Assembly (NCBI GenBank): GCA_964415355.1 | Contig: CAYPYS010000001.1 | Location: 1,361 to 65,360, forward strand | From: an uncultured Planctomycetia bacterium | GTDB lineage: Bacteria > Omnitrophota > Gorgyraeia > Gorgyraeales > Gorgyraeaceae | Direction of reading: 5' to 3' | DNA length: 64,000 nucleotides | In this document: positions 1,597 through 61,821 of the stretch, in pieces | How positions within the stretch are numbered: the stretch's first letter is position 1 | Layout of the letters: every line of letters starts with the position of its first letter | Notes under the pieces: generated by a model | What the model was told of the DNA's origin: nothing | Seen by the model: the letters and a program-made list of their open reading frames with translations, nothing else | The model's database searches: none | Translations under genes and position numbers: made by a program

Positions 1597-1635
1597 CTAA
1601 CTTTACACTTTAACGTTGTTGAAATGTAAAGTTAG
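1597..1635. repeat. 39-bp intergenic palindromic repeat, copy 1 (orientation B: ...CTTTAACGTTGTTGAAATG...)
   Basis: CTAACTTTACACTTTAACGTTGTTGAAATGTAAAGTTAG. It supplies the rdgB stop codon. Confidence 0.9.
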
Positions 1636-2223
1636 GTAGCTCTTTATGATATCTTTTGACTTTATTAAGGCCTTGCTTCTGTGGCTAATTTTATTTTTCT
1701 TTCTTAGGCCCATCTGGGCAAATGTTTTTTTATTTCCGTTGGGGATAAAAACTGGGTCATAGCCAAATCCTGTCTTTCCAGCTGGCTTAAAACCTATCCT
1801 GCCATCGCATTTCCCTTCTGCAAGACCTATTATTTTGCCTCTGTCCGCAACAGCTATCACGCATCTGAATCTGGCCTTTCTCTTTGCAGAAGGAACGCCT
1901 TCGAGCAACCTTAATAATTTACTATTATTACTTTTATAAGTGGCACCTTTACCTGAAAAGCGCGCTGAATAAACGCCAGGCTTGTTTCCTATAGCAGCGA
2001 CCTCTAGCCCGGAATCATCCGCAATTACAAGTCTTTTCAAAAATCGCGAGACCTGAAGCGCTTTTTTCTTTGCGTTGCCCTCAAGAGTATTCCTGTCTTC
2101 CTTTACTTCCGGCACATCTTTAAAGCCGTCTAAAGACAGGACTTTTACAGGAAGACCTTTCAAAAGAGTTTTTATTTCTTTGAGTTTGTCTTTGTTCCTT
2201 GTGGCTATAATGAGTTCTGTCAT
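1603..2223 (-). CDS. rdgB: dITP/XTP pyrophosphatase (RdgB/HAM1 family)
   Basis: The N-terminus [17 protein letters not shown] and the motifs IADDSGLEV and FGYDPVF match RdgB. The last residues and the stop codon are supplied by repeat copy 1. Confidence 0.85.
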   Translation of the reverse strand: MTELIIATRNKDKLKEIKTLLKGLPVKVLSLDGFKDVPEVKEDRNTLEGNAKKKALQVSRFLKRLVIADDSGLEVAAIGNKPGVYSARFSGKGATYKSNNSKLLRLLEGVPSAKRKARFRCVIAVADRGKIIGLAEGKCDGRIGFKPAGKTGFGYDPVFIPNGNKKTFAQMGLRKKNKISHRSKALIKSKDIIKSYLTLHFNNVKV

Positions 2224-2945
2224 TATAAAGCTAATTTTATGATCTTTTTCTGAGCAGCAACCAGACTATCAATGCCTTTTTTTGCAAGCGATACCAGCTT
2301 ATCTAGATTTTTTCTGGGAAAAGGTGTCTTTTCTGCAGTACCCTGCACCTCAACCAATCTCCCATCGTCAGTCATAATGACGTTCATGTCAACATCTGCC
2401 TTTGAGTCCTCTTCATAATCCAGATCCAGGCATAATTTGCCGTCGATGATCCCAAGGCTCACTGCAGCAACATAATTCTTTATCGGGATTTCGGCTATCG
2501 CGCCGCTTTTCTTCAACGCAAGAAGCGCGCCTGAAAGCGCGATAAAGCTGCCTGTTATGCTCGCGGTGCGCGTCCCGCCGTCAGCCTGTATTACGTCACA
2601 ATCTATCCAGACAGTCCTCTCGCCTAATCTCTCAAGATCCACTACCGAGCGAAGGCTTCTCCCTATTAGACGCTGTATTTCCTGCGTGCGGCCGCTCTGT
2701 TTTCCGCGCGAGGCCTCTCTGGGCGTCCTTGTCTTGCACGAGCGCGGCAGCATTCCGTATTCCGCGGTTATCCAGCCCGATCCCGTATTTCTCAAAAAAG
2801 GCGGAACCTTTTCCTCTACTGAAGCGCTGCAGATGACCCTCGTATTGCCGACCTCTATCATGCAGGAACCTTCTGCAAATTCCATTACGTCTCTTTTGAT
2901 CTTAACCTTTCTCATCTCATCGAGTCTTCGTCCATCGCTCCTCAT
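2223..2945 (-). CDS. rph: ribonuclease PH
   Basis: MRSDGRR...[15 protein letters not shown]...[18 protein letters not shown] aligns with Rph. The track start ([11 protein letters not shown]...) is a repeat-derived artefact, so the start is moved to MRSDGRR. Confidence 0.9.
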
Positions 2946-2958
2946 ATTCCCCCTCACC

Positions 2959-2996
2959 TTAAGTTTACTTTTAACATTGTTGAAAGTTAACTTAAG
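2959..2996. repeat. 39-bp repeat, copy 2 (degenerate right arm, B)
   Basis: TTAAGTTTACTTTTAACATTGTTGAAAGTTAACTTAAG lies between rph and the fumarase beta gene. Confidence 0.7.
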
Positions 2997-3489
2997 CAAT
3001 AGATACTATGGCCGGGAAATCTTCTATCTCTAGCCTATGCATTGCCTCAGTGCCAAGATCCCCGTAAGCCACCACTTTATTCGCTTTAACCTTTTCCTGT
3101 AAATACGCACCCGCGCCGCCGATGGTCACAAAATATACTGCGCCGAATCTTTTTATTGCAGAAACTATTTCCTTGGACCTCCTGCCCTTGCCTATCATGC
3201 CGATAAGGCCCTGCTTCAATAAAGACAATGTAAATGGGTCCATCCTGGAGCTGGTTGTCGGCCCGCATGAACCAATAACTTCCCCTGCCCTCTTCGGCGT
3301 AGGTCCTGTATAATATATAGTCTCGCCTTTTATAGAAACCGGTAATTTTTTGTGGGCAAGAATAGCCTCGACCAATCTTTTATGAGCGGCATCGCGCGCT
3401 GTCAATAGAGAACCGCTTAGCAAAACCTCCTCGCGCGGCTTTAAACTCTTTACAATATTTTTCGTTAAAGGTAAATATATCTTTCGCAC
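2992..3489 (-). CDS. class I fumarate hydratase, beta subunit (Fe-S hydro-lyase, tartrate/fumarate family C-terminal domain)
   Basis: [14 protein letters not shown]...YYTGPTP...[11 protein letters not shown] resembles FumB-C/TtdB. Confidence 0.8.
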
Positions 3490-4328
3490 TATATCACCTT
3501 ACGTGCCCCTCTTGTAGCATGACAGCTAATATTTACCGCAACAGGCAAACCCGCTATATGAGTAGGATACGTCAATATGCTTACTGAAAAAGCAGTCGTT
3601 TTTCCGCCCATGCCCATTGGCCCTATCTTTGTTTTGTTGATTTTTTCTAATACGCGCTTTTCCATTTTTGCGAAATGAGCCTTTTTACTGCGCTCGCCTG
3701 CATTCCTGAAAATAGCTTCCTTGGAAAGCGATGTCGCTTTATCAAGCGTCCCGCCTATGCCGATCCCTACATAAAGCGGCGGACATGCATTTGCGCCATG
3801 TTCCTTGACTGAATCTACGATAAATTTTTCAATAAGAGCTGCTGAATCAGTAGGCCTGAACATCTTTGTCCTCGAGATATTCTCGCAGCCGAATCCTTTT
3901 ATGGCAACCTCTATATGTATCTTATTGCCTGGCACGATTCGATAGTATATCAGCGACGGTAGATTTGTGCCGGTATTCTTTCTAATTAAAGGATCTTTTA
4001 CGACAGACTTTCTAAAACACCCGGCTTTGTAAGCATCGCGTACGCCTTTTTCTATTGCCTTTTCAATGTCGCCTCTTACGCTTACAGACTGGCCTACTTT
4101 AATATAAACCGCGACCATGCCTGTATCCTGGCATATAGGAAGTCTTTTCTTCTTTGCCAATAGCGCATTTTTAAGGATGATATCGAGTATACGCCTTGAC
4201 ATCCCGGACTCTTTGTTTCTAGCCCGCTTCAATGCGTCCAGGACATCTCTCCTCAGCTCGACATTTGCTTTTACGCATAACCCTCTGACCGCATCTGTAA
4301 TAACCTTGCTATTTACGATTCTCATCAT
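3489..4328 (-). CDS. class I fumarate hydratase, alpha subunit (Fe-S hydro-lyase, tartrate/fumarate family N-terminal domain)
   Basis: The LPICQDTGMVAVY motif matches the alpha subunit. The gene is adjacent to and overlaps the beta subunit gene. Confidence 0.8.
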   Translation of the reverse strand: MMRIVNSKVITDAVRGLCVKANVELRRDVLDALKRARNKESGMSRRILDIILKNALLAKKKRLPICQDTGMVAVYIKVGQSVSVRGDIEKAIEKGVRDAYKAGCFRKSVVKDPLIRKNTGTNLPSLIYYRIVPGNKIHIEVAIKGFGCENISRTKMFRPTDSAALIEKFIVDSVKEHGANACPPLYVGIGIGGTLDKATSLSKEAIFRNAGERSKKAHFAKMEKRVLEKINKTKIGPMGMGGKTTAFSVSILTYPTHIAGLPVAVNISCHATRGARKVI

Positions 4329-4996
4329 CTCACCCCCAGGATCTTGTGGACCTGCGGTATAATAGTGACTCTGCCCAGCTCTTTCTTTGCGTTTCTAAAA
4401 AAATCCGGTAGCGAAGCAATATTCTCGACCTTTCCATTATAACTTACCGGCTGCAGAATAAAAAGAATATCTTTATCTATGCCCCTGACAATAGAAACAG
4501 CCTTTTCAATATCTTCTAAAGACGTTTCAGGAGTGACGACTATTTTTATAAATACTTCTTTTTTTATTGCTTCTTTTAAAAAATCTAAATGTTCCTGCCA
4601 GTAAACCCCGAGCCCGGTAGAGCTGGGGAGCTTCATATCCATGCTTATTATATCAATGTAATCCAATACATCCAAAAGTCTGTCTTTCATCGTGCCGTTC
4701 GTCTCAAGATAGACCTGCGCGCCTTTCTCTTTTAAAACCGGCAGGATCTCTTTTAAAAAATCAGCCTGCAATAAAGGCTCTCCTCCGGTCAGGGAAACAG
4801 TGTTTTTTTCTTCTCTTGCAATGTTTTCGATAACTGCATCAGCGTCATATTCAAAAAAACCTGTCTTTTCTTTTTCGTCGCAGAATCCACATCCAAGGTT
4901 ACACCCCGAAAACCTTACAAAGACATGCTCATGACCCACGTAAGGCCCTTCACCCTGAATAGAGCTATATATCTCTGTGATCCTCGCCCGTCTCAT
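4325..4996 (-). CDS. queE: 7-carboxy-7-deazaguanine synthase (radical SAM)
   Basis: MRRARITEIYSSIQGEGPYVGHEHVFVRFSGCNLGCGFCD matches QueE. The start is moved downstream of the repeat-derived MLKCKVKDGWI extension. AGGA lies 8 nt upstream of that ATG. Confidence 0.85.
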   Translation of the reverse strand: MRRARITEIYSSIQGEGPYVGHEHVFVRFSGCNLGCGFCDEKEKTGFFEYDADAVIENIAREEKNTVSLTGGEPLLQADFLKEILPVLKEKGAQVYLETNGTMKDRLLDVLDYIDIISMDMKLPSSTGLGVYWQEHLDFLKEAIKKEVFIKIVVTPETSLEDIEKAVSIVRGIDKDILFILQPVSYNGKVENIASLPDFFRNAKKELGRVTIIPQVHKILGVR

Positions 4997-5010
4997 AATC
5001 CATCCATCCT

Positions 5011-5048
5011 TAACTTTACATTTCAACAACGTTAAAATGTAAAGTTAG
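5011..5048. repeat. 39-bp repeat, copy 3 (orientation A: ...CATTTCAACAACGTTAAAG...)
   Basis: It lies between queC (stop inside the repeat) and queE. Confidence 0.9.
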
Positions 5049-5673: not shown

Positions 5674-5712
5674 CTAACTTTACATTTCAACAACGTTAAA
5701 GTGTAAACTTAG
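5674..5712. repeat. 39-bp repeat, copy 4 (A)
   Basis: It lies between xerC/D and queC. Confidence 0.9.
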
Positions 5713-6607: not shown

Positions 6608-6682
6608 CTAACTTTACACTTTAACATTGTTGAAAACTTGTGCCGCCATACATTAAGAATGACATGCGGTATGTAAAGTTAT
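6608..6682. repeat. 39-bp repeat, copy 5, split by a ~34-bp insertion (left part 6608-6635, right arm ATGTAAAGTTAT 6671-6682)
   Basis: CTAACTTTACACTTTAACATTGTTGAAAA, then a 34-nt insert, then ATGTAAAGTTAT. The topA stop codon lies at the right edge. Confidence 0.6.
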
Positions 6683-8688: not shown

Positions 8689-8727
8689 CTAACTTTACAT
8701 TTCAACAACGTTAAAGTGTAAAGTTAG
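8689..8727. repeat. 39-bp repeat, copy 6 (A)
   Basis: It lies between dprA and topA. Confidence 0.9.
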
Positions 8728-9836: not shown

Positions 9837-9876
9837 CTAACTTTACACTTTAACGTTGTTGAAATGTAAAGTTAAG
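9837..9876. repeat. 39-bp repeat, copy 7 (B)
   Basis: It lies between aroK and dprA. Confidence 0.9.
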
Positions 9877-10375: not shown

Positions 10376-10480
10376 AACCTCCTCCGCTTCTTATTCTTAA
10401 GAATATAGCAGATACCTACCTAATAGTCAAATCTTTCACTATTCTCTGTCATCCCCACAAAAGCGAACATGACACGCTTG

Positions 10481-10521
10481 CTTAACTTTACACTTTAACA
10501 TTGTTGAAATGTATACTTAAG
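10481..10521. repeat. 39-bp repeat, copy 8 (B, variant right arm GTATACTTAAG)
   Basis: It contains the hycI stop. Confidence 0.85.
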
Positions 10522-11565: not shown

Positions 11566-11604
11566 CTAACTTTACATTTCAACAACGTTAAAGTGTAAAC
11601 TTAG
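11566..11604. repeat. 39-bp repeat, copy 9 (A)
   Basis: It lies inside the hydrogenase operon, between the MrpG-like and NuoI-like genes. Confidence 0.9.
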
Positions 11605-14624: not shown

Positions 14625-15106
14625 TTCTCTTCAGACCCTCTATCGATTCTCAAAAGCACAAGAGTAACCACTATAATAAACAGTCCCGAGCCTACTTTAA
14701 AGGCGATCGCAATATTGGATAAAGGTATCAGGCCAGAGCTAAAAAGCCTGAAAAGTTCTCCCTTGGCTGCAAAATTCAAAAAGAAATATCCGCCGGTTGC
14801 CAGCCCAAGGATACCAATGGTAATAAACATTATCGCGCCCAAGCTCTCGAAAAATGAAGCTACCTTCTGGTCCACTTTTTTAAAAGCTGCTTCTTTTCCG
14901 AACGCCAGCATGATGTGTATAAAAGAGAGCGCTATGATCACGCCACCTGCGAATCCGCCGCCAGGGCTTATGTGGCCGTGCGCGACGATGTACACGCCGA
15001 AAAGCAGTATCAGTCCCACTGTCAACCGCGTGATCGTCTTTACTATTAGTGTCATTCCCTTTTCTTGCTCTCTCATAAAACTGCCCCTAACTTTACTTTT
15101 CAACAA
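14621..15106 (-). CDS. Mrp subunit B-like (MnhB domain)
   Basis: MnhB-like (HGHISPGGGFAGGVIIA). Confidence 0.65.
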   Translation of the reverse strand: MLKSKVRGSFMREQEKGMTLIVKTITRLTVGLILLFGVYIVAHGHISPGGGFAGGVIIALSFIHIMLAFGKEAAFKKVDQKVASFFESLGAIMFITIGILGLATGGYFFLNFAAKGELFRLFSSGLIPLSNIAIAFKVGSGLFIIVVTLVLLRIDRGSEEK

Positions 15107-15125
15107 TGTTAAAATGTAAAGTTAC
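15087..15125. repeat. 39-bp repeat, copy 10 (A-like variant)
   Basis: CTAACTTTACTTTTCAACAATGTTAAAATGTAAAGTTAC lies between Mrp genes inside the operon. Confidence 0.85.
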
Positions 15126-19512: not shown

Positions 19513-19550
19513 CTAAGTTTACACTTTAACGTTGTTGAAATGTAAAGTTA
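19513..19550. repeat. 39-bp repeat, copy 11 (B)
   Basis: It lies between the NuoH-like and NuoB-like genes. Confidence 0.9.
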
Positions 19551-20453
19551 CATCCCCATCGTAGCCAGTATAACTGCGATTATAGCTATAGCTGTCATCT
19601 TTCTCCAGAAAAATCTCACTGCCTGATCTATCCTCACGCGAGGATTCGTGTTCCTGATTAAAGTTATCAGCACCAGTAACACAACGTACTTCCATATGCT
19701 AAAACCACCCCACAGTATCGTGATCAAAAATACTGGCAACGCGACCAGCATCATTGTCTTTGTAAGTTTTAATATTGCAAGCAATATCCCCGAGTATTCT
19801 ATCTGTATTCCTCCCATTATCTCTGTCTCTGCTTCTGCCATATCAAAAGGCACAAGGCCTAGTTTTGCCTGCATGCAGAATATCGCTACCAATAGCGCCA
19901 GGATCCCGGAAAAACTTGCGACAAAAGACCCGTTTGCTGCCTGATAGGCGATAAGTTGCTCAAACCTCAGAAATCCGCCACTCTTAATGATCGGGATAGT
20001 AAATATTATAATAAACGGCAATTCATAAGCCAGGAGAAGCTTGATCTCTCTCGATATGCCCACGGATGCAAGCGGATTGCCGCTGGAAGACGCGCCTATT
20101 ATCAGGGCGATCGCCGGCAAGGTCAATAGATATAAGACGACTATCATGTCACCCGTAAAACCATTGCTCCCTATATTTAGATTGGGCAGCCATATAAAGG
20201 TAGAGGCCAATATGACCGCGCTGAGTCCGACTAAAGGCGAAAGCATAAATGTAAGCTTTGAGGCACCGCGCGGCACAGTGATCTCTTTTATACTCAGTTT
20301 CACCAGGTCAATAAACGGCTGATACCATGGCGGGCCCACTCTCCACTGGACGCGCGCTGTGACCTTGCGGTCGATCCAGCTCGCCACCAGGCCAATGGCC
20401 GCCGTAAAAATAAAACCTGGGAATATCAGGAAATTAAATAAATTTTTTACCAT
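19548..20453 (-). CDS. NuoH-like membrane subunit (MbhM/HycD/EchB-like)
   Basis: WIDRKVTARVQWRVGPP is the NuoH signature. Confidence 0.8.
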   Translation of the reverse strand: MVKNLFNFLIFPGFIFTAAIGLVASWIDRKVTARVQWRVGPPWYQPFIDLVKLSIKEITVPRGASKLTFMLSPLVGLSAVILASTFIWLPNLNIGSNGFTGDMIVVLYLLTLPAIALIIGASSSGNPLASVGISREIKLLLAYELPFIIIFTIPIIKSGGFLRFEQLIAYQAANGSFVASFSGILALLVAIFCMQAKLGLVPFDMAEAETEIMGGIQIEYSGILLAILKLTKTMMLVALPVFLITILWGGFSIWKYVVLLVLITLIRNTNPRVRIDQAVRFFWRKMTAIAIIAVILATMGM

Positions 20454-20952: not shown

Positions 20953-20991
20953 CTAACTTTACATTTCAACAACGTTAAAATGTAAAGTTAA
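20953..20991. repeat. 39-bp repeat, copy 12 (A)
   Basis: It lies between the AsrB-like gene and the ferredoxin gene. Confidence 0.9.
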
Positions 20992-22841: not shown

Positions 22842-22865
22842 GAAAAACCTTTTAGCAGTGTGAAT

Positions 22866-22883
22866 TTGTGAAAATTATCACAA
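22866..22883. promoter_or_regulatory. perfect CRP/FNR-family type palindrome TTGTGA-N6-TCACAA, 25-42 nt upstream of the first gene of the hydrogenase operon
   Basis: TTGTGAaaattaTCACAA is read directly from the sequence. It matches the CRP consensus half-sites TGTGA/TCACA with a 6-bp spacer. Confidence 0.5.
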
Positions 22884-41610: not shown

Positions 41611-41828
41611 TATCTGTTCCTTCCGATTATATCTTTTAGCTTCCGTATTTCACTGGTAGTGTATTCCCGCCAGCCATTTACAGCATTGCGCTTGGGCTTC
41701 GGGAATACCTTTTTGTTCTCGTAGCGTATCAATGTCTGCTTGGATATCCCCAGAAACTCTGCGGCCTCTGTAGCGGAATAGAATTTTTCTCTCTTCATAA
41801 GCATCACCTCGCTCATTTGCATCTCCAT
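41610..41828 (-). CDS. small MerR/excisionase-type HTH DNA-binding protein
   Basis: YSATEAAEFLGISKQTLIRYENK is HTH-like. The gene overlaps the pilMN start by 1 nt. Confidence 0.55.
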   Translation of the reverse strand: MEMQMSEVMLMKREKFYSATEAAEFLGISKQTLIRYENKKVFPKPKRNAVNGWREYTTSEIRKLKDIIGRNR

Positions 41829-41912: not shown

Positions 41913-41951
41913 ACTAACTTTACATTTCAACAATGTTAAAGTGTAAACTTA
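41913..41951. repeat. 39-bp repeat, copy 24 (A)
   Basis: It lies between the 607-aa secreted protein gene and the HTH gene. Confidence 0.9.
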
Positions 41952-41961
41952 CGCGGGTGGG

Positions 41962-43802: not shown

Positions 43803-43841
43803 CTAACTTTACATTTTAACGTTGTTGAAATGTAAAGTTAG
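43803..43841. repeat. 39-bp repeat, copy 25 (B)
   Basis: It lies between the giant GspK-like gene and the 607-aa protein gene. Confidence 0.9.
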
Positions 43842-46800
43842 CGCTCGAAAACAACCCAGATCTTCTTTTCAGAAAGCACCCTGTCTTCGTCCAGTGTCTG
43901 GGCAGTTACAATTATCCTATATACATCTGAATGAACAGTGACCAGGTTTGAGATCTGTCTGAATCTATCTCTCTTATCCTCGTCTTCTCTACCCAAGGCG
44001 TCTGTAGAAATCAGGTCGCCTATACCAAGACGAAGACCATTATTGTCGCCAAATATTCTATTTGCAACTATGTCATCTGCGATGCCCTCGTCTATCCCCG
44101 GGAGCGCACTGAGCACTTTTTTAGAAGCTGTGTTGATGTTTATCTTGCCGTCGATAGTATTTACCGGGTCAAGCCTTATAAAATCAAAATGCGCTCCTCC
44201 TGTCTTTGAAACATTTTTTATCTTCAGCTCAAGCTCATTGCTCGGCGTGGAGACTTCGCTATCTGTTCCTATCTCTATATTCCCAAAAAGCACGCTTCCG
44301 CCTGGCCCAGGACTAAGCGGAGGCGTAAACGCAGTCCACGTATCGTCAGCAAGATGTAACGACACTGCGATCTCTTCTTCCTCTTCTCCAAATATCCTTA
44401 ATGTATAATACCCGTTTCTAATTCCGTCTTTTTCTTCCCATCGCCATACGCCAACCGAATCTCCTTCTCCTTCCTCCTCCTCATCGTCTTCTTCGCTTTC
44501 GGCAGCCTCACCATTCTCAAAATGATCAGTCAAAGGTGATGCCCTCTGAACCATTTTCCATGCACCTTCAGAACCAGGCACGATATGGTCCTCTGCCTCA
44601 AGTCTTATGCCAAAAACCGTCAATCTATCGGCTATCTTGGATACATCCTCTAAAGGCACGGCATCCCACTCTTTAAGGCCGGATGAAACAAAACCTATCT
44701 CGCCAACTGATGAAAAATTCTTATTCTTTACAACTACCTCTGTGATGTCGTGCTCTATTATCTCTTTTTCAATCTGGCCTTCCACCTCTATCTCTTCTAT
44801 CATCCCTTCATTATCATTTGGCAAACCAGGAGTTGCGCCATCTTCTGCGTCTGATGTATACCAACCTTCGGGGATACCATTTAGATTTGAATCAACTACA
44901 TAGCTGGGATCTGACCGCTCCAGACTTTTATTCGCAGGGATCCCACCGCTAAAATATTCCGCTGCGTCAACAATGTGGCCCATTGGATCTTTTAGAGTTA
45001 TGATATTTCCGTCAGGGTGCGGCTCGTTAGAGAGTAAATCAGAGCCCGGCACAACTGCTTTTACAAAATGAAGCTCGGCTGATTTTTCCTGTCCCCATAT
45101 AGACACAAACGATATATCGTTTCCCTGGATGCCGTCCTGCGAATCATCTCTATCAACGCAGAGCACAAGGTGCTCGTCCGGGCCAATGACCGTGCCGAGC
45201 GGAATAGACGCTGGCCAGCCCTGCTTGCTCGGGCCCTCGACGCTCCAGCCGCCAAGATTCACCTCGTTGGATGTGAGATTTACGAGCTCGATGTATTCAG
45301 CGTCTGGCTCCTGTGTCAATTCTATTGACTGAAAATAAGCGGACCCTGAATTCAGATTATTTTGCACTCTCACCGTGATCTTTTCATTAGAGACAGTAAT
45401 AGTCTTGCCGCCTCCGAACAATTCTCCGTCCAACATGTCTCTTGAGCGAGCGCCTCCTATCTCTACATCCCCCACCTCTTGACCCTGCATGCCAAACACC
45501 TTTACATAATATTGGCCGTTCGGCACACCCTGCCAGGTCCAATCCCCTTCGCCGGTCTTGCCGCCATTAGGTTCATCATTCTGAAAATAACTGCCCTGCC
45601 AGGTCCAATCCCCTCCGGGATCCTGTCCGTTAAAACTAGCCAATGAAGTGCTGGGCCTTGCCATTATTTCATTGATCCTTATACCCTCCACGCCCCGGAC
45701 CTCGACAGCACTAAAGCCTTCCTGTCCTAACCTGGGATATAATTCCAGATAGGAAAAATAACAGACTTCGTCTTCCTCTTTATTTTCCACTGTCAATTCG
45801 AGCATGTCCCTCTCTTCAAAAGAAACAGTGCCTATCCTTAATATCTCGCCGTGCCTCACTGAACCCTGACTCACACCATTAATGGCAACATCCCCTACGT
45901 ATTCACCCGCGACGCCGAACACGCCGATATAAAATTCCCCCTCGGGTAAATTCAACCACGTGATTACCAAAGGCTCGCTATCTTCGACATCGCTTTCATA
46001 GTGTCCGCCCCTCCAAACCCAATCACCTATGGGGCCTCTGTTCACAGCGCTCAGCCTATTGTATAGCTTCGACACCACGCTCTGACTGAAATCTTCGTCG
46101 CATGCATCTATTATGTTCACTGCTTTTTGAAACGGGTCACTTGCGCCTGCGTCTTCGAGGAGAACTAAAAGCGTAGCAGCGTCCATAAAATTTATGTTTT
46201 CCCTGAGCCTTCCTTCTACGTCTAAATTTTTATCCGGAGAGTACGAGGTAATATAAGGGTATATCTTTGTAAAATCACTTTCTTTTATGGATTGGATTTT
46301 GGCTAGTTCAAAAGGTGTTTCGAACGCATTGTCATCCGCGTACGGAGAAGATGGGACAAATTCCATTGGCTCGTCAATGCCTTCGCCCGCCTCGTCTATT
46401 ATGCCGTCCGCATTGTTGTCTATGCCGTCCGCGGCCAGGATCCTTTGGTTATCATTGTCATCCACCCCCATCTCTCCAGGCTCGCCGTCCAGGCCCAACC
46501 TGTGATCCAATATATCTTCGTATGTTTTCTGGGAATCACTCAACTCAAAAGAGGCGAGGAACGATTGGAGATCGAGTTCGTGCGGTGTCCAGCCTTCTGT
46601 AACCTTCAGTGGAGAGATATTTTGTTTGTCAGCGATGTTTATGTTTAGAAAACCTGACTCGTCCCTGACTAAAACAGCGTAACGACCGATAGGCTCATTC
46701 AGATCATCGTAAACATATATCCATTTTGAATCAAGCTCGCCGTCGCCGTCATTGTCGACATCAAAGCCCTCGAAAAGCGTAGCCCATGCGTCTTGGAAGC

Positions 46801-47023
46801 TATCGATATCCGGTTCGTCTTCCTTTATCACAGCCTGGGCATAGGTAACGCCGGACTCTGCAAGATACGAGGCTCGTGTCGCTTCTAAAAAGTTGGAGGC
46901 GGATTTCAACTCAAGCCTCATGGTAAAAGCAAAAGACACGGCCATTATGCCAGCGACCGCAAGTATGCTCACGACCAGTATAAGAGCGATACCTTTATTA
47001 TTACTATTACCCATGTCCCTCAT
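43838..47023 (-). CDS. giant GspK/PilX-like minor pseudopilin (1061 aa) with C-terminal helix-hairpin-helix
   Basis: The N-terminus GIALILVVSILAVAGIMAVSF is a pseudopilin-like TM. The C-terminus ININTASKKVLSALPGIDEGIADDIVANR is an HhH as in GspK/ComEA. Confidence 0.5.
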   Translation of the reverse strand: MRDMGNSNNKGIALILVVSILAVAGIMAVSFAFTMRLELKSASNFLEATRASYLAESGVTYAQAVIKEDEPDIDSFQDAWATLFEGFDVDNDGDGELDSKWIYVYDDLNEPIGRYAVLVRDESGFLNINIADKQNISPLKVTEGWTPHELDLQSFLASFELSDSQKTYEDILDHRLGLDGEPGEMGVDDNDNQRILAADGIDNNADGIIDEAGEGIDEPMEFVPSSPYADDNAFETPFELAKIQSIKESDFTKIYPYITSYSPDKNLDVEGRLRENINFMDAATLLVLLEDAGASDPFQKAVNIIDACDEDFSQSVVSKLYNRLSAVNRGPIGDWVWRGGHYESDVEDSEPLVITWLNLPEGEFYIGVFGVAGEYVGDVAINGVSQGSVRHGEILRIGTVSFEERDMLELTVENKEEDEVCYFSYLELYPRLGQEGFSAVEVRGVEGIRINEIMARPSTSLASFNGQDPGGDWTWQGSYFQNDEPNGGKTGEGDWTWQGVPNGQYYVKVFGMQGQEVGDVEIGGARSRDMLDGELFGGGKTITVSNEKITVRVQNNLNSGSAYFQSIELTQEPDAEYIELVNLTSNEVNLGGWSVEGPSKQGWPASIPLGTVIGPDEHLVLCVDRDDSQDGIQGNDISFVSIWGQEKSAELHFVKAVVPGSDLLSNEPHPDGNIITLKDPMGHIVDAAEYFSGGIPANKSLERSDPSYVVDSNLNGIPEGWYTSDAEDGATPGLPNDNEGMIEEIEVEGQIEKEIIEHDITEVVVKNKNFSSVGEIGFVSSGLKEWDAVPLEDVSKIADRLTVFGIRLEAEDHIVPGSEGAWKMVQRASPLTDHFENGEAAESEEDDEEEEGEGDSVGVWRWEEKDGIRNGYYTLRIFGEEEEEIAVSLHLADDTWTAFTPPLSPGPGGSVLFGNIEIGTDSEVSTPSNELELKIKNVSKTGGAHFDFIRLDPVNTIDGKININTASKKVLSALPGIDEGIADDIVANRIFGDNNGLRLGIGDLISTDALGREDEDKRDRFRQISNLVTVHSDVYRIIVTAQTLDEDRVLSEKKIWVVFER

Positions 47024-47053: not shown

Positions 47054-47092
47054 CTAACTTTACATTTCAACAACGTTAAAGTGTAAAGTTAG
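47054..47092. repeat. 39-bp repeat, copy 26 (A)
   Basis: It lies upstream of the GspK-like gene, next to the terminator. Confidence 0.9.
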
Positions 47093-47921: not shown

Positions 47922-47945
47922 ATGTCATTCCCGCGAAAGCGGGAA
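47922..47945. repeat. GC-hairpin repeat ATGTCATTCCCGCGAAAGCGGGAATCCATAA (copy 4 of 4; 31 nt identical to the copy at 22961-22991)
   Basis: Read directly from the sequence. It lies between the MscS-like gene start and the GT9 gene end. Confidence 0.8.
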
Positions 47946-47948
47946 TCC

Positions 47949-47985
47949 ATAAAATGCCTAAGCTTACTTTCAACAATGTTAAATG
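47949..47985. repeat. 39-bp repeat, copy 27 (degenerate, A-like)
   Basis: CTAAGCTTACTTTCAACAATGTTAAATGTAAACTTAG lies next to GC hairpin copy 4. Confidence 0.75.
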
Positions 47986-47990
47986 TAAAC

Positions 47991-49196
47991 TTAGGTGGAG
48001 AGGAAGGATTTGACTTTTTTAAAGATGTCTTCGGGCTTGATATTTTTTAAGCAAATGCCTTCTTTGCACGGCGATTTTCTGTGATTATAGACATTCAGGC
48101 AGGGACTGCAGACCAAATCTGAATCTATAGATATTTTGTCGCTATCTCCTTCTCCGTATAAACGAGACGTCTCTGGTCCGAAAAGTATTATGACTTTTAT
48201 GGGAACCAGGGTCGAAAAATGAGCCGGTCCGCTGTCGCTCGTCACCAATAAATCTGCGACACAGTACAAAGTCAAAAGTTCTCTCAGCGAAGTCTCTCCG
48301 GCGAGAGAAATCGCGTCCCCCATCCTATATGCCAGCATCTTGCCCTTTTCTTTTTCTCCGGCAACGCCTGTAATGATAATGGTCGCGCGGGGAAATTCTT
48401 GCAAAATCATCCTCGCCAGTTTCACATAGTTTTCTTCAGGCCAACGCCTCACCTGCAACAGATCATCCATGTCAGGATTCAAAAGTACTATTGGGCTGGT
48501 CAGGTTTGACTTTTTCACGCCCTCGATTTTTTTTACCAGCGCACTTTTCTCGCTTTCACTGGGGGAAAAAACAGGAAGTCCTTCGGTCACATCCGGGGTC
48601 TTAAAGCACATGGGTTTATTATCAGGCGACGGGCAATGATTAAGGGCCTCTACCAATGTTGCGAACAAGACCCTTGTGTGCAGGTATGGATTATATACAA
48701 GCCTGTGAGTAAAAAGATCTCCTCTATAAGGGCCTTCGCAGGTGAACAAGTGAAACCCGACTCTCTTATCAGCCCCGGAAAGATACGAAAGGATAGCAGA
48801 GCCCCTGGAGAAAAATTCCATATCTATGGCAGCGTCTATTTTTTCTTTCCTGATTCTCGCAAGTGCCTTTATCAAGGACAAAATCATGCCGCCAGGAGAG
48901 CTCGGATCTATCTCTATTATATTTTGCGACGGCAGTATATCGAATATATCCAATATATGGCGGTTTTCTTTAAAGACTAAAAAATAAAGATTATCTTTCC
49001 CCACCATACCAGCTGCCTTTTTTAACGCCTGATAGGCGAGCATCGTGGAACCCTGCTCTATTAATTTTATGAAGAGGATTTTGGAGGGATGGCCTGTGTC
49101 TTCGTTATCTTTTTTAAGATTTCTACACACCGTGAGCAAAAAACAAAACACGCTGCCGACGTTCCTGTCTAACCACCGAATAACTCCCTGATTCAT
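47991..49196 (-). CDS. glycosyltransferase family 9 (heptosyltransferase-like)
   Basis: The GT9 fold is present (ILFIKLIEQGS...GPETSRLYGEGD). The start is moved to MNQGVIRW past the repeat artefact. Confidence 0.65.
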   Translation of the reverse strand: MNQGVIRWLDRNVGSVFCFLLTVCRNLKKDNEDTGHPSKILFIKLIEQGSTMLAYQALKKAAGMVGKDNLYFLVFKENRHILDIFDILPSQNIIEIDPSSPGGMILSLIKALARIRKEKIDAAIDMEFFSRGSAILSYLSGADKRVGFHLFTCEGPYRGDLFTHRLVYNPYLHTRVLFATLVEALNHCPSPDNKPMCFKTPDVTEGLPVFSPSESEKSALVKKIEGVKKSNLTSPIVLLNPDMDDLLQVRRWPEENYVKLARMILQEFPRATIIITGVAGEKEKGKMLAYRMGDAISLAGETSLRELLTLYCVADLLVTSDSGPAHFSTLVPIKVIILFGPETSRLYGEGDSDKISIDSDLVCSPCLNVYNHRKSPCKEGICLKNIKPEDIFKKVKSFLST

Positions 49197-49233
49197 GTCA
49201 CTATTGTAACCTGCGCTAATAGGGATTTCAACC

Positions 49234-49272
49234 TTAACTTTACACTTTAACATTGTTGAAGTGTATACTTAG
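49234..49272. repeat. 39-bp repeat, copy 28 (B variant), first of an inverted tandem pair
   Basis: TTAACTTTACACTTTAACATTGTTGAAGTGTATACTTAG. Confidence 0.85.
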
Positions 49273-49311
49273 GTAACTTTACATTTCAACAATGTTAAAG
49301 TGTAAAGTTAG
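49273..49311. repeat. 39-bp repeat, copy 29 (A), second of the inverted tandem pair
   Basis: GTAACTTTACATTTCAACAATGTTAAAGTGTAAAGTTAG. Confidence 0.9.
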
Positions 49312-51873: not shown

Positions 51874-51908
51874 ATATTATTCACGAGTCACGAACTATTA
51901 GGTAACTA

Positions 51909-57372: not shown

Positions 57373-57411
57373 CTAACTTTACATTTCAACAACGTTAAAG
57401 TGTAAAGTTAG
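57373..57411. repeat. 39-bp repeat, copy 30 (A)
   Basis: It lies between the GAF histidine kinase gene and pilB. Confidence 0.9.
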
Positions 57412-58616: not shown

Positions 58617-58655
58617 CCTAACTTTACACTTTAACGTTGTTGAAATGTAAAGTTA
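58617..58655. repeat. 39-bp repeat, copy 31 (B)
   Basis: It lies between the first RR gene and the GAF kinase gene. Confidence 0.9.
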
Positions 58656-59027
58656 GGTCTTCTTTGTGTAAAATTTTATCTTGTCTATCAGTTCTTCCGC
58701 GTCAAAGGGCTTAGCTATAAAATCTGATGCTCCAACGTCTTTAGCTTCTTTTGGACAAGAATCTTGGCAAAGTCCTGCAGAAAATAATATTATAGGTATA
58801 TCCTTTGTTTCAGGAGTTACTTTTAATTTCTTGCACACCTCATAGCCGTGCATAACTGGCATAAATAAATCCAAAAGTACAATATCGGGTTTTGTCTCTT
58901 TTGCCTTATAAAGTGCACTTAGACCATCATACGCACAAGTAACTTCAAAACCATTGGACTCGAGCCTTGCCTTTGTAACCTCTATTATGTCCTTCTCGTC
59001 ATCCACTAATAACACTTTTGTCTTCAT
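58653..59027 (-). CDS. single-domain response regulator (REC only)
   Basis: KVLLVDDE...LLDLFMPVMHGYEV is a CheY-like receiver. Confidence 0.85.
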   Translation of the reverse strand: MKTKVLLVDDEKDIIEVTKARLESNGFEVTCAYDGLSALYKAKETKPDIVLLDLFMPVMHGYEVCKKLKVTPETKDIPIILFSAGLCQDSCPKEAKDVGASDFIAKPFDAEELIDKIKFYTKKT

Positions 59028-59398
59028 ATCTTCAATATCTCTCTCACCTTTTTGACTACATCATCCATCTCAAAAGGTTTTTCCATATAGCCTGAAATTT
59101 TCTGGAATGCAAACAAGTCGCGCACCTTTTCTTCCTCCTTGCCGCTAAGCATCAAAACAGGGATATTTTTTGTCTTAGGGAGACTTCTTAATTCTTTCAG
59201 GCAGGAGTAGCCGTCCATCTTGGGCATCATAATATCCAGTAAAATCATATCTGGCATCTCTTGTTCTGCTATCTTGACGCCTGCTTCACCATCGCCAACA
59301 GTTATAACCTGTAGATTCTCCTGCTCCAACCTGATCTTCAAAAGCTTCTGCATATCAGGCTCATCGTCTATTACTAGAACCTTCTTTTGTCCATCCAT
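59024..59398 (-). CDS. single-domain response regulator (REC only)
   Basis: KVLVIDDE...LLDIMMPKMDGY. Paralog of the neighbouring receivers. Confidence 0.85.
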   Translation of the reverse strand: MDGQKKVLVIDDEPDMQKLLKIRLEQENLQVITVGDGEAGVKIAEQEMPDMILLDIMMPKMDGYSCLKELRSLPKTKNIPVLMLSGKEEEKVRDLFAFQKISGYMEKPFEMDDVVKKVREILKI

Positions 59399-59418
59399 AA
59401 CACCCTCTCTTTATGCCG

Positions 59419-59457
59419 CTAACTTTACATTTCAACAACGTTAAAATGTAAAGTTAG
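59419..59457. repeat. 39-bp repeat, copy 32 (A)
   Basis: It lies between the RR2 and RR3 genes. Confidence 0.9.
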
Positions 59458-59461
59458 GCTA

Positions 59462-59833
59462 TTATTTTAGTAGTTCTTTTATCTTTCCTACCAACGCCTC
59501 TGGCTCGAAGGGTTTTGTAATATATGCGTCTGCACCCATTTCTTTGCCAATCATCTTATCCTTCTCCTGTGCCCTGGCAGTAAACATGATAATCGGCTTA
59601 TGCTTATGTTTTTCGTCAAACTTTAGCATTCTGCAAACCTTATAGCCGTCGATTTTAGGAAGCATTAAATCTAATATTACCAAATCCGGCCACGTAGACC
59701 TAGCCTTATCCAACCCCTCCTGGCCATCAGCTGCCTCTTTCACATCATATCCTACTGCCTCGAGGCGAAACTTCAGCATCTTCCGCAAATCTTCTTCATC
59801 ATCAACCAAAAGAATCTTTTTTTTCTCATTCAT
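59462..59833 (-). CDS. single-domain response regulator (REC only)
   Basis: KILLVDDE...ILDLMLPKIDGY. Confidence 0.85.
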   Translation of the reverse strand: MNEKKKILLVDDEEDLRKMLKFRLEAVGYDVKEAADGQEGLDKARSTWPDLVILDLMLPKIDGYKVCRMLKFDEKHKHKPIIMFTARAQEKDKMIGKEMGADAYITKPFEPEALVGKIKELLK

Positions 59834-60195
59834 AATACGCTCCTTATTTTTTCTATTAAATCCTTGGGATCATACGGCTTTTCAACAAAATACTTTATGT
59901 CCTCAAGCGCAAAAAGATCGCCCACCTTCTTTTTCTCCTTCGCTGATAGTATTATAACAGGAATATCCTTAAATTCATCTTCTTTCCTCATCTCTCTTAG
60001 GGCACTATAACCATCCATCTTAGGGAGCATTATATCTAACAATATCGCATCCGGCTTTTTGATCTTTAATAAATTAAGCATCTCTTCTCCGTCTCCGGCA
60101 CCCATAAACTCAAAACCTTCTGCCTCAAGTCTTGTCTTCATCATCTTTAACATATCCTGATCGTCATCAACAACTAGTATCCTTTTCTTTGCCAT
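59830..60195 (-). CDS. single-domain response regulator (REC only)
   Basis: RILVVDDD...LLDIMLPKMDGY. Confidence 0.85.
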   Translation of the reverse strand: MAKKRILVVDDDQDMLKMMKTRLEAEGFEFMGAGDGEEMLNLLKIKKPDAILLDIMLPKMDGYSALREMRKEDEFKDIPVIILSAKEKKKVGDLFALEDIKYFVEKPYDPKDLIEKIRSVL

Positions 60196-61363
60196 CTTCC
60201 ACCTCCTGCCTAAATGTTATTTTTTTGCCTTTCAAATCTTTCTCACTCTGTTTTATTAAACTCTCCTTATTCTCTGCCTCTCCAGGATAAACTGCAATAC
60301 CATAATTTAAAGGAACGTTAATTCTTTTCTTTAATCTTTCCAAAATGCTCTTTACGCCACATCTATTAGTACCTACCATCATAGCTAATAGCTTTCCGTC
60401 CTTGAATCTCGCGACCTTATCCTCAGGACCTCTGACCGTAGTCTTCATTGCCTCTTCTAAACTGGCTAGGTTTTCTTCGCTGTTATCCTTTTTCTTATTG
60501 ATACTAAAAACAATCAATGCTAATTCCAGCTCAGCATACCTCGCCCTCTCTATAGCTCCATCAAGCAAAAAATTAAACTCATTATCTCTCTTGTAAATAG
60601 GCAATGTAAAGATAAACTTACTCCCTTTACCCTCTTCAGACTCGACCCATATATCACCCGCGTGATAATCTACAATTCTCTTGCAAATAGAAAGTCCAAG
60701 GCCAAGGCCTGTATGTTTACGCGTCATACTGGTATCCAATGGATTATATTCTTTAAAAAGCTCTGGTATAAGTTCTCTTGAAATCCCAATGCCTGTATCT
60801 TCTACGCTGACTCTTATGACTTCTTTCCCGTCGATATTTCCATTGGAACTAACTATTGTTATCTTGCCTTTTTCTCTATTAAACTTTATTGCATTCGATA
60901 TAAGATGCTTTAATGCCTGGGCTATTCTCTTAGGGTCAAACCATGCCTGCTCAATGCCGTCGGAGAGTTCAATATTAAAATCTATTTTTTTCTTTTCTAT
61001 ATCCTCTTTAATCTCGACATACACATCATTTATGACTTTATTTATATCTGCCTTTTTTTTGTGCATTGTAATGCGTCCAGAATCCAGCTTGGAAAAATCC
61101 AGAACATCTACTACGAGTTTCGCCAGTCTATCTATATTTTTCTTTGCCATGCTTAAAAATTTCTTCTGATCATCGCCTATGGGCCCGGCAACTCCTTCCA
61201 GCACCAAAGAAATACTTTCTTTAATAGAAGTCAAAGGCGTACGCAATTCATGCGAGATTATTGAGACAAAATCCGACCTTATCTTTGAAAGCTTCTCAAT
61301 GTCCTCATTCGCCCTCAAAAGCGCCTGTTTTAATTCCATAATCTGAACTTCTTGCTTCTTCAT
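60167..61363 (-). CDS. cytoplasmic histidine kinase with ~140-aa uncharacterised C-terminal extension
   Basis: HisKA (ISHELRTPL) and HATPase motifs. No TM. A C-terminal extra domain is present. The gene overlaps the upstream RR gene by 29 nt. Confidence 0.8.
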   Translation of the reverse strand: MKKQEVQIMELKQALLRANEDIEKLSKIRSDFVSIISHELRTPLTSIKESISLVLEGVAGPIGDDQKKFLSMAKKNIDRLAKLVVDVLDFSKLDSGRITMHKKKADINKVINDVYVEIKEDIEKKKIDFNIELSDGIEQAWFDPKRIAQALKHLISNAIKFNREKGKITIVSSNGNIDGKEVIRVSVEDTGIGISRELIPELFKEYNPLDTSMTRKHTGLGLGLSICKRIVDYHAGDIWVESEEGKGSKFIFTLPIYKRDNEFNFLLDGAIERARYAELELALIVFSINKKKDNSEENLASLEEAMKTTVRGPEDKVARFKDGKLLAMMVGTNRCGVKSILERLKKRINVPLNYGIAVYPGEAENKESLIKQSEKDLKGKKITFRQEVEDGKEKDTSC

Positions 61364-61378
61364 GACTATCCCATCTAC

Positions 61379-61417
61379 CTAAGTTTACACTTTAACATTG
61401 TTGAAGTGTAAACTTAG
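61379..61417. repeat. 39-bp repeat, copy 33 (B variant)
   Basis: CTAAGTTTACACTTTAACATTGTTGAAGTGTAAACTTAG lies between the RR remnant and the histidine kinase gene. Confidence 0.85.
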
Positions 61418-61649
61418 GGATTATTTCAAGAGTCTCCTCTATCTTCCCCAAAAGCGCCTTTGGATCAAACGGTTTTGTAACATATGCGTCTGCGCCGACT
61501 TCTTCGCTTACCTTATGATCTTCGCCTATAGAATCTCGCAGCATAGTATATACAAACCAATACATCAGGATAATGACTATAAAGATAGTGGTAAAAATTG
61601 GCAAAAAAATAGAACGAAAAATCTTGCGTTTAATGCTGCTCTTGCCCAC
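61392..61649 (-). pseudogene. remnant of a response-regulator gene (C-terminal piece fused to an unrelated hydrophobic N-terminus)
   Basis: ...GADAYVTKPFDPKALLGKIEETLEI matches the C-terminus of the RR at 59462..59833 (GADAYITKPFEPEALVGKIKELLK). The end of the ORF runs into a repeat copy. Confidence 0.4.
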
Positions 61650-61698
61650 GATCCCCTCCAGCCTCGATACAATAAGCTATTTAGTGAGCTATATAACT

Positions 61699-61726
61699 AC
61701 TAGTATATATATAAATACATACTAGT
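61699..61726. promoter_or_regulatory. 28-bp palindrome ACTAGTAT-N12-ATACTAGT in an AT-rich untranslated region
   Basis: Read directly from the sequence. It lies between the double-REC regulator gene and the RR remnant. Confidence 0.35.
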
Positions 61727-61782
61727 CAAATTTAAATTTACATAGTGTTAATCCATGCAGTGAAACGTAATCAGGAAGGGAC

Positions 61783-61821
61783 TTAACTTTACATTTCAAC
61801 AACGTTAAAGTGTAAAGTTAA
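61783..61821. repeat. 39-bp repeat, copy 34 (A)
   Basis: It lies downstream of the double-REC regulator gene. Confidence 0.9.

Follow-up and report, generated by a model that had tools for sequence, protein, structure and literature searches.

The 64,000-nucleotide stretch of contig CAYPYS010000001.1 analyzed here (hereafter the window), which derives from an uncultured member of the Omnitrophota, carries 33 copies of a 39-bp palindromic element between its genes. Comparison with related genomes revealed that these hairpin repeats are gained, lost, flipped, nested and decayed at the 3′ ends of genes, while both their pairing and their sequence are kept. The element is probably a lineage-specific family of propagating hairpin repeats, similar to repetitive extragenic palindromic (REP) sequences, whose insertion at the 3′ ends of genes is tolerated by a compact genome.

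Turnover of the element at conserved gene junctions

The history of individual copies can be followed in the region hypF-hypCDE-hypA-...-Mbh/Mrp-hycI-aroK-dprA-topA-xerC, which is syntenic in several relatives (L018-L020, L023, L022, L024 and the outgroup L021, Candidatus Gorgyraea atricola, ~75%). The group formed by L018-L020 and L023 shares 90.6% amino-acid identity with the window, and identity falls to 64% at 1822 four-fold sites. Within this region, the window and L018 have a copy in common at five junctions (hypA/abpE, abpE/NIL-Fer4, hycI/aroK, dprA/topA and topA/xerC), and four others (nuoH/q6, DHODB/Fer4_11, mbhD/mnhB and aroK/dprA) are filled in the window only, the genes abutting or overlapping in the relatives. 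The NiFe-large/antiporter junction is filled only in L019, L020, L023 and L022, being empty in the window and in L024, and the outgroup L021 has no copy in 21.8 kb. Since copies have been gained and lost between relatives, the occupancy of a given junction is labile and is not required by the operon. A previous reading of the window, made from its sequence only, had taken the precise placement of the copies as a sign of selected function; this proposal is not supported by the comparison, as the same hydrogenase-operon junctions are empty or otherwise occupied in relatives.

The shared copies illustrate how individual units change. At hypA/abpE, the window copy (24234-24272; orientation B, minus strand; upstream stop codon at element positions 2-4) is identical to its ortholog at L018 3416 in all 39 positions and the flanks differ, while the dprA/topA copy (8689-8727; B, minus strand; stop 10 nt upstream) shows compensatory differences from its ortholog at L018 18720 at the pairs 1/39 and 5/35. 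The hycI/aroK copy (10482-10520; orientation A, plus strand), which has a GTATAC arm on one side and provides the stop of the upstream open reading frame (ORF) at positions 24-26, corresponds to L018 16967, and the topA/xerC copy (6608-6682; plus strand) is interrupted by an insertion that is missing from its intact ortholog at L018 20833.

Among the junctions filled in the window only, the copy at NuoH-like/Oxidored_q6 (19513-19551; A, plus strand; stop at 2-4) faces an empty site in L018-L020, L023 and L021, where the TAA abuts the start codon; the copy at DHODB-like/Fer4_11 (20953-20991; B, minus strand) faces an empty site in L018 and L020 and other palindromes in L021 and L022; the MbhD/MnhB copy, a variant of B (15087-15125; minus strand; stop at 2-4), has no counterpart in L018, L024 or L021; and the copy between shikimate kinase and DprA (9837-9875; A, plus strand; stop at 2-4) is lacking in L018 and L019, in which the two genes overlap. 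The mnhG/Fer4 junction inside the Mbh operon holds a copy in the window (11566-11604; B, minus strand; stop at 2-4), and in L018 (15858) it contains a new copy with a GTATAC arm beside the remnant (...AAAGTTAG) of an older one. Unrelated palindromes also occupy these same junctions, including a 60-bp palindrome in L018, terminator-like palindromes in L021, and a 'TTCTCGAC...' family plus ATTCCCGC-N4-GCGGGAAT hairpins in L022. The suggestion of a REP-like element or miniature inverted-repeat transposable element (MITE), one of several offered by the sequence-only reading, is thus the one that gains from the comparison, through presence or absence at orthologous junctions, the existence of subfamilies, tandem and nested copies, and decayed remnants.

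In-place inversion of palindrome centers is fast in these genomes. For example, the core of the abpE/NIL-Fer4 copy (seven asymmetric positions) is reversed at the same nucleotides between the window (23456-23494; B, minus strand; stop at 2-4) and L018 (4194), and the copy at the end of the Ham1/ITPase gene (1597-1635; A, plus strand) has its core flipped in place in L027, across flanks that are 88% identical in nucleotide sequence. The same process acts on the 60-bp palindrome, whose 4-nt loop is inverted between L019 (5087-5161, CAAA) and L023 (6334-6408, TTTG) even though these contigs are 99.3% identical. Because palindrome centers invert in place quickly, the two orientations occur at about 50:50; on the plus strand of the window we count 13 A, 17 B and 3 ambiguous copies, so both orientations occur, as had been claimed, in a ratio other than the ~18 A : 16 B reported at that time.

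Copy number and placement in the window

When the degenerate consensus proposed from the sequence was searched with up to 3 mismatches, it matched 28 positions in the window and none in 100 dinucleotide-preserving shuffles, and the 11-nt arm by itself gave 60 matches where 1.5 were expected. Since the element almost equals its reverse complement, both strands were matched at each of the 28 positions. A scan allowing 12 mismatches, combined with arm scans and the inspection of every junction, brought the total to 33 copies: 29 intact 39-mers, two 38-bp variants with an identical 1-nt deletion (29269-29306 and 31407-31444), one copy split by a 36-nt insertion and one decayed copy of 37 bp (47958-47994). 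A dense repeat had therefore been recognized correctly, and its number, given as 34, was slightly too high. The copies are spread fairly evenly at a density of ~0.5 per kb, and they make up ~2% of the DNA.

All long ORFs in the window (~68 protein genes) and its three tRNA genes lie on the minus strand, so every junction is co-directional, and the GC skew of the plus strand is negative throughout positions 1-64000 (-0.13 to -0.30); the gene-strand bias is extreme over at least 64 kb. The element is present at 30 of the ~67 co-directional junctions, three of which hold a tandem pair, and the 37 junctions without it are gene overlaps or gaps of at most 35 nt. Inspection of all junctions placed every copy in the window at a gene junction and none inside a gene. 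The statement that each gap longer than 40 bp contains a copy is true of the window, and two of the exceptions named with it (22842-23033 and 51874-51908) hold none, but it is largely circular, since most such gaps exceed 40 bp by virtue of the 39-mer itself.

The position of the copies relative to flanking genes is also regular. In 18 of the 33 window copies, the stop codon of the upstream gene is the TAA at element positions 2-4; three ORFs enter a copy in another frame, and the remaining copies either have the stop 1-16 nt upstream or are the second unit of a tandem pair. Among 68 copies from all sampled genomes, 31 have the upstream stop at positions 2-4, versus 11 for the other two frames together, and in 59 the stop lies within the copy or at most 12 nt upstream. 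The next start codon is found mostly 8-23 nt past the element (median ~13), and the purine-rich positions 40-46 constitute a Shine-Dalgarno region just outside it. This agrees with the arrangement read from the sequence, in which the upstream stop falls within the element, the start follows shortly and the Shine-Dalgarno sequence is excluded. About 22 copies are intra-operon (in the Mbh/Mrp hydrogenase, hyp, bio, secretin/pilus and two-component clusters), and ~8 are at apparent operon ends, where a good TTGACA-N16-18-TATAAT promoter follows or, in one case, precedes the copy.

Two window genes gain 10-residue tails encoded by the element. These are Ham1 (1603-2223), which enters the copy at 1597-1635 for 10 codons (LTLHFNNVKV) and stops at TAA 31-33, and HypF (26971-28140), which runs into the copy at 26965-27003 (A, plus strand) and uses the same stop. 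Such frame-1 tails read LTLHFNNVKV or LTLHFNVVEM according to the orientation of the element, occur also in L027 and L029, and could be used to survey the element in protein databases.

Structure, folding and sequence constraint

Position i of the element pairs with position 40-i at 17-18 of 18 positions, leaving a 3-nt loop (GTT/ATT or AAC/AAT). In the window version only the pairs 12/28 and 15/25 are non-Watson-Crick, one being C-A and the other T-G, and the two swap when the element is read from the opposite strand; many copies in a related metagenome-assembled genome (MAG) are perfect palindromes. The dyad reaches C(0) and G(40), with C0 in 46 and G40 in 47 of 74 copies, and it extends beyond these positions in UBA10183; the stem comprises 18-20 bp and the unit 39-41 bp. 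The element had been described as 10-bp arms around an asymmetric core of 17-19 nt, a picture which the long stem and 3-nt loop replace. Both ends are paired and symmetric, and no conserved motif was found in the flanks beyond C0/G40. Only 3-4 of the 18-20 pairs are G-C, and the predicted RNA hairpin has a free energy of -18 to -20 kcal/mol for the window versions and -25 kcal/mol for the perfect version (z of about -6 to -7.5), and the DNA hairpin one of about -11 kcal/mol. In either orientation, all three frames of the element run into a stop codon (TAA 2-4; TAA 15-17 or 24-26; TAA 31-33).

Variation among copies respects this fold. In the alignment of copies, 94% of cells are paired and six pairs show double changes (53 cells), a result equaled by none of 500 shuffles. 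The swaps are C-G to G-C at 5/35, T-A to C-G at 8/32 and 2/38, and T-A to A-T at 7/33, and they define arm subfamilies (CTTTACA, GTTTACA, GTTCACA and GTATACA, with outer CTAA, TTAA, ATAA or ACAA); a few copies are hybrids of left and right arms, such as those with G5 facing G35. At the same time, 17 of the 39 columns are invariant across all sampled genomes (at least five), and orthologous copies are identical at 183 of 195 positions (94%, flips allowed for), compared with the 64% seen at four-fold sites. Thus, pairing and sequence are both maintained, and the cause of this constancy could be a propagating enzyme that is specific for sequence and structure, gene conversion among copies, or use by the host.

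Distribution across genomes

At least three species representatives of GTDB (UBA10183, DRR093005_bin.42 and SRP167671_co1_160, or CAYULJ01) contain the exact 33-nt core of the element, the last of them on at least 15 contigs, and the element is also found in ENA assemblies (L018-L020 and L023). A metagenome scan with the exact 39-mer returned nine contigs of 1-3 kb from one assembly (JACKQG01), with no autonomous element among them. In all, the element occurs in at least five assemblies besides that of the window, and its presence in independent NCBI, ENA and JGI-derived assemblies rules out an assembly or vector artefact, an outcome that had been put forward as able to overturn the original observation. 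The element is genome-wide and lineage-wide; in CAYULJ01, for instance, the genes adjoining copies are ordinary housekeeping genes (enolase, purB, purC, mnmA, coaX, folD and similar). Consistent with the lineage, the hydrogenase antiporter subunit of the window has its best database match, at 87% identity, in Candidatus Omnitrophota.

No match to the element was obtained among IMG/VR viral contigs, and an Rfam 15 scan at the gathering score reported three tRNAs as the sole matches, so no family in that collection covers it. A literature search found no description of palindromic repeats for Omnitrophota.

The repeat has probably also left traces in the assemblies themselves. The N run at L018 9900-9999 falls exactly where sister contigs carry the 39-mer, and several of the JACKQG01 contigs with copies (L025-L033), which are 1-3 kb long, have a copy near a contig end. 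Short-read MAG assemblies of these genomes are probably broken up in part by the repeat.

A proposed route of propagation

By analogy with the REP/RAYT and terminal inverted repeat (TIR)/TIRYT systems, we infer that copies propagated through a folded single-stranded intermediate acted on in trans by an enzyme, most plausibly one of the HUH/Y1 type (RAYT/TIRYT-like), and gene conversion among copies may have added to the constancy of the sequence. The placement at junctions would follow from the near absence of intergenic space in a compact genome: where junctions typically span -4 to +15 nt, an insertion would be survivable nowhere but at the far 3′ end of a gene. Likewise, the 31:11 bias in reading frame would arise because a stop at TAA 2-4 alters at most the last residue, so that this frame is retained. 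Copies within operons would be co-transcribed and would place a stable RNA hairpin right after the stop codon, which, judging from REP and Correia elements, would either slow exonucleases that work from the 3′ end or draw in RNase III, and would loosen translational coupling (PMC3733652, PMC2649163). These RNA effects would be a side effect, possibly co-opted at some sites, and not the reason for which the family exists.

Several observations weigh against propagation of this kind. No transposase of any kind was detected among the window ORFs with Pfam and NCBIfam, and the same searches of genes flanked by copies in L008, L010 and L011 returned housekeeping functions only. IS608 TnpA and E. 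coli RAYT queries gave no tblastn match in 284 kb, a weak negative that leaves the RAYT or IS200 partner anticipated in the sequence-only reading without a candidate in this sample. Variable target-site direct repeats are missing at every boundary offset, and the unpaired GTAG or CGTC tag of REPs is absent, the arms having GTAA and TTAG but no such tag. Filled and empty sites differ by 4-23 nt in addition to the element, so no clean insertion event could be reconstructed; the extra nucleotides consist partly of remnants of old copies and partly of former 3′ coding sequence that still holds the downstream Shine-Dalgarno sequence. The 17 invariant columns fit equally well with a host factor that needs the sequence, and unbiased orientation is not predicted by strand-specific single-strand transposition unless flipping in place randomizes it.

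Other signs of an insertion process were sought as well. The arm scans of the window found no longer segment bounded by solitary arms that could be a parent insertion sequence, and the 344-aa gene flanked by copies (28156-29190) encodes a distant MetE-like protein and not a transposase. Only the invariant TA at positions 2-3/37-38 could represent a target duplication, and the CA...TG variants found there in UBA10183 and L012 are complementary rather than direct, so these positions are argued to belong to the stem. For this reason, and because no variable duplication exists and the palindrome continues to 0/40 and farther in UBA10183, we rejected as the main model an IS630/Tc1-like MITE inserted at CTAG with TA duplication, a reading whose appeal was that a TAG stop would turn into TAA and that positions 1/39 are C/G. 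The arm ATGTAAACT resembles the half-site for XerD in Bacillus dif, a likeness that was set aside, as the arms are spaced by 15 nt and not by 6.

A bolder version of the proposal, which we regard as speculative and rather unlikely, is that the 39-mer is a co-evolved module of gene boundaries in this Omnitrophota clade: a self-propagating hairpin that supplies stop codons, is recognized sequence-specifically by a dedicated factor that is neither a RAYT nor a DDE transposase, and is used by the cell to cut or insulate long polycistronic transcripts into independently stable units. If true, such a module would explain how the sequence was held at 94% while neutral sites fell to 64%.

Alternative explanations

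A host-selected role in RNA punctuation would invert the argument for a propagating repeat: the hairpin would be kept for transcript processing (for example by RNase III), for 3′-end protection or for the differential stability of operon segments, and its benefit would drive its spread. It has several observations on its side. At -18 to -25 kcal/mol the stem would be very stable as RNA, nearly all copies occupy co-directional junctions that are transcribed and leave the Shine-Dalgarno sequence immediately beyond the element, compensatory changes preserve pairing, and orthologous copies are far more alike than neutral sites. In the CAYULJ01 subfamily, the perfect stems reach 20 bp, a length sufficient for RNase III. 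Correia elements are bound and cleaved by this enzyme (PMC2649163). On the other hand, the same junctions of a conserved operon are empty in relatives with ~90% amino-acid identity and in the outgroup, orientation flips freely, and tandem, interrupted and decayed copies exist. What is conserved is the sequence and not pairing alone. Among non-Watson-Crick cells on the transcribed strand, G-U (54) is no more common than A-C (48), although this test has low power, as the two frequent asymmetric positions contribute one G-U and one A-C whichever way the element is oriented. Twelve copies contain uncompensated C-A. The RNA hairpin foreseen from the sequence is therefore real in its stability, its stem was given the wrong size, and it shows no strand-specific signal of selection on RNA. 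On balance, we consider punctuation as the primary function to be doubtful.

A site in duplex DNA for a symmetric protein, such as a nucleoid-associated protein, a global regulator, or an uptake or segregation signal, is improbable despite the perfect dyad symmetry, the high and fairly even density and the seventeen columns that do not vary among genomes. Arm variants within one genome change complementarily on the two sides (5/35, 8/32 and 7/33), which is the signature of base pairing and speaks against this earlier suggestion, and arms of 18-20 bp around a 3-nt center are unlike dimer operators. In addition, junction occupancy is not conserved, and no copies lie within genes, unlike uptake sequences.

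We give very little credence to an integron attC- or Xer-type recombination site, an idea raised by ends of the form GCYTAAC...GTTARGC and by genes that are co-oriented as in a cassette array. The attC inverse-core/core consensus is RYYYAAC/GTTRRRY, with conserved AAC/GTT, and known sites measure 57-141 bp. The ends of the C-subfamily fit this consensus, the hairpin has one mismatched position, and a XerC gene is present in the window; however, AAG...CTT (G5-C35) replaces AAC...GTT in 21 of 74 copies (~30%), the element is shorter than known attC, and the genes it flanks form conserved syntenic housekeeping operons and not variable cassettes. The sole tyrosine recombinase is a 291-aa XerC equivalog whose gene keeps its customary topA-xerC setting; it scores 362 bits against a cut-off of 335 and far below the cut-offs for integron integrases.

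Less credible still is a compact promoter (TTTACA ... TGTAAAGT) that would give internal transcription starts, in either direction as first proposed: TTTACA looks like a -35 hexamer, the two 38-bp variants, in which the spacer is 18 nt, reach 9/12, and the copy at 47054 follows a terminator-like hairpin with no obvious promoter before the next gene, but in canonical copies TTTACA and TAAAGT are 20 nt apart and a sigma-70 scan misses them, its few weak 9/12 matches lying partly or wholly inside copies, whereas clear TTGACA-N16-18-TATAAT promoters occur in larger gaps (22945-22917, 12/12; 33513-33486, 11/12) and several true promoters are downstream or upstream of a copy and not inside it. An intrinsic terminator was rejected given the AT-rich stem, the lack of a T-run, the purine-rich downstream sequence and the location of copies within essential operons, and a terminator scan of the window reported no copy.

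Relationship to known repeat families

Small palindromic repeats are familiar features of the genomes of Proteobacteria, cyanobacteria and a small number of other phyla. The Omnitrophota element is likely to be a functional equivalent of REPs or of self-complementary TIR repeats that has multiplied in a gene-dense, strand-biased genome. REP density is ~0.1-0.35 per kb in E. coli, Pseudomonas and Stenotrophomonas, and the element exceeds it at ~0.5 per kb. It shares with REPs a size of 20-40 bp, a palindromic sequence, hundreds of copies, a location between unidirectional ORFs near the 3′ end of the upstream gene, a terminus that often gives the stop, the occurrence of singles and close pairs, co-transcription and an RNA that can fold. 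REPs lie within 20 bp of the 3′ end of the upstream ORF, those of the GTAG type often supply its TAG stop, and one end of each REP carries the conserved, unpaired GTAG or CGTC motif that defines the class (Di Nocera et al. 2013, PMC3733652). The element differs from them in lacking this tag, in its longer, near-perfect stem of 18-20 bp with a 3-nt loop, and in the intra-operon location of most copies, merely 8-23 nt from the next start, and a RAYT was not found in the 284 kb searched.

Repeat families with self-complementary TIRs and no GTAG tag are known next to genes for TIRYT tyrosine transposases (PMC3733652). With these and with the REPIN-RAYT system (Bertels & Rainey 2011, PMC3116915), the element shares the nature of a hairpin-forming, non-autonomous unit that is inherited vertically, retains its family consensus across deep divergence and occurs more often than chance predicts. 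A REPIN, however, consists of two inverted palindromic REPs plus a spacer, whereas the arms of the Omnitrophota unit are not self-complementary and the whole measures 39-41 bp, and both the REPIN/RAYT and the TIRYT systems are defined by a single-copy transposase, none of which was found in the Omnitrophota sequence searched.

The Correia element of Neisseria, a MITE (PMC2649163), and other MITEs (PMC10969869, PMC2229807) resemble the element in TIRs that begin at TA, polymorphism between close genomes, transcripts that fold and the capacity to alter the expression of adjacent genes. Correia elements, though, are 100-155 bp long and have an internal core, an IHF site, outward promoters and a TA duplication, while the Omnitrophota element has no core, promoter or demonstrable duplication. 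Of the traits that define MITEs, terminal inverted repeats are present, the whole element being an inverted repeat.

Mycobacterial interspersed repetitive units (MIRUs) are short repeats between cistrons in operons that overlap the flanking stop and start signals. The element likewise lies between cistrons inside operons, usually on the upstream stop codon, but MIRUs, at 40-100 bp, are arranged as direct tandem repeats, encode small ORFs and are not palindromic. The attC sites of integrons are similar in forming an imperfect hairpin just after co-oriented ORFs and in the RYYYAAC/GTTRRRY-like ends of one subfamily; they differ in that AAC/GTT is not kept in all subfamilies of the element, which is shorter and comes with neither cassettes nor an integron integrase that could be found.

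The family is new for Omnitrophota, and each of its single properties has precedent in known repeats. It is unusual for its brevity, perfection, density and intra-operon location, and it is among the shortest units and the highest densities. It opens no new class of mechanism; its value is as a clean natural experiment in the accommodation of selfish hairpin DNA where genes leave almost no space between them. The element probably shapes mRNA processing in an uncultured phylum, and it is a convenient lineage marker.

Remaining copies along the window

The copies outside the comparison above follow the same pattern. Near the left end, copies at 5010-5048 and 5674-5712 (both B, minus strand) provide the stops of QueC and XerC at TAA 2-4, the latter having a G5/G35 hybrid arm and the next ATG 8 nt downstream. 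A copy at 28121-28159 (A, plus strand; stop at 2-4) separates the MetE-like 344-aa gene from HypF. Tandem pairs are found at 29230-29268 (A, plus strand; second unit) with 29269-29306 (38-bp variant; first unit), which gives the stop of the ORF at 29303-29551, and in the bio cluster at 31368-31406 (B-like, minus strand; second unit) with 31407-31444 (38-bp variant; first unit), which gives the stop of the ORF at 31441-32433. A copy follows BioB (32414-32452; B, minus strand; stop at 2-4), and another (33436-33474; A, plus strand) lies between the consensus promoter at 33513-33486 and the bioB start, and would thus be in the 5′ untranslated region.

In the secretin/pilus region, a copy stands between two secretin genes (36035-36073; B, minus strand; stop at 2-4), one with a hybrid arm is located 10 nt after the stop of the ORF at 41962-43785 and is followed by a promoter-like site (41914-41952; B, minus strand), and two bracket the gene for a GspK-like protein of 1061 aa, giving its stop at 2-4 (43803-43841; A, plus strand) and preceding its start by 30 nt after a terminator-like hairpin (47054-47092; B, minus strand). 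The decayed copy at 47958-47994 gives the TAA stop of a GT9 gene (47991-49253), and the third tandem pair consists of 49234-49272 (A, plus strand; GTATAC arm; second unit) and 49273-49311 (B, minus strand; first unit; stop at 2-4). Among the two-component genes, copies occur at the histidine kinase/T2SSE ATPase junction (57373-57411; B, minus strand; stop at 2-4), at a response regulator/histidine kinase junction (58618-58656; A, plus strand; stop at 2-4), between response-regulator genes (59419-59457; B, minus strand; stop 5 nt upstream), upstream of the histidine kinase gene at 60167-61363 (61379-61417; A-like, plus strand; compensated G5/C35 arms) and 15 nt after the stop of the response-regulator gene at 61836-62576, where a promoter-like region is next (61783-61821; B, minus strand; TTAA...TTAA ends).

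Other palindromes and neighboring genes

The 39-mer is not the only small palindrome in these genomes. The ATTCCCGC-N4-GCGGGAAT hairpins, which often lie within TGTCATTCCCGC...GCGGGAATCC, form a second family with 4 matches in the window (22966-22985, 23001-23020, 26934-26953 and 47927-47946) versus 0.14 expected, and with members at L022 6254-6418; a degenerate relative near 10400-10440, at hycI/aroK, is an insertion relative to L018. This family resembles the Neisseria dRS3 repeat ATTCCC-N8-GGGAAT. Unrelated palindromes are found at Mbh/hyp junctions in L022 (156-219, 1667-1734 and 7205-7261), in L018 (11780-11854, the same as in L019 and L023) and in L021 (2023-2108, 6507-6580 and 15806-15942), several of them starting right at the stop codon. 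In this clade generally, gene junctions are colonized by small palindromes. Within the interrupted copy at 6608-6682, the 36-nt insertion (6620-6655; ACCGCATGTCATTCTTAATGTATGGCGGCACAAGT) may be a degenerate member of the TGTCATTC... family.

Genes of the window also deserve comment. The 1061-aa protein (43838-47023) combines a GspK-like minor-pseudopilin N-terminus, a lamin-tail domain and a ComEA-like helix-hairpin-helix near its C-terminus, and these features, in a cluster resembling those for type IV pili or type II secretion, suggest that it may be a pilus-associated DNA-binding protein. HypF (26971-28140; also L018 1-518) has the Kae1-like C-terminal domains only (389 aa), and the MetE-like gene upstream of it is not the missing N-terminal half; HypC (26711-26935) fills the 263-nt gap adjoining the copy at 26965. 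In the 351-nt gap that holds the copy at 41914-41952, a 72-aa minus-strand ORF (41610-41828) has an apparent helix-turn-helix of the MerR/excisionase type. Four consecutive single-domain response-regulator genes lie between histidine kinases at 58653-60195, and the last 4 kb of the window (60001-64000) has a G+C content of 0.375 compared with ~0.44.

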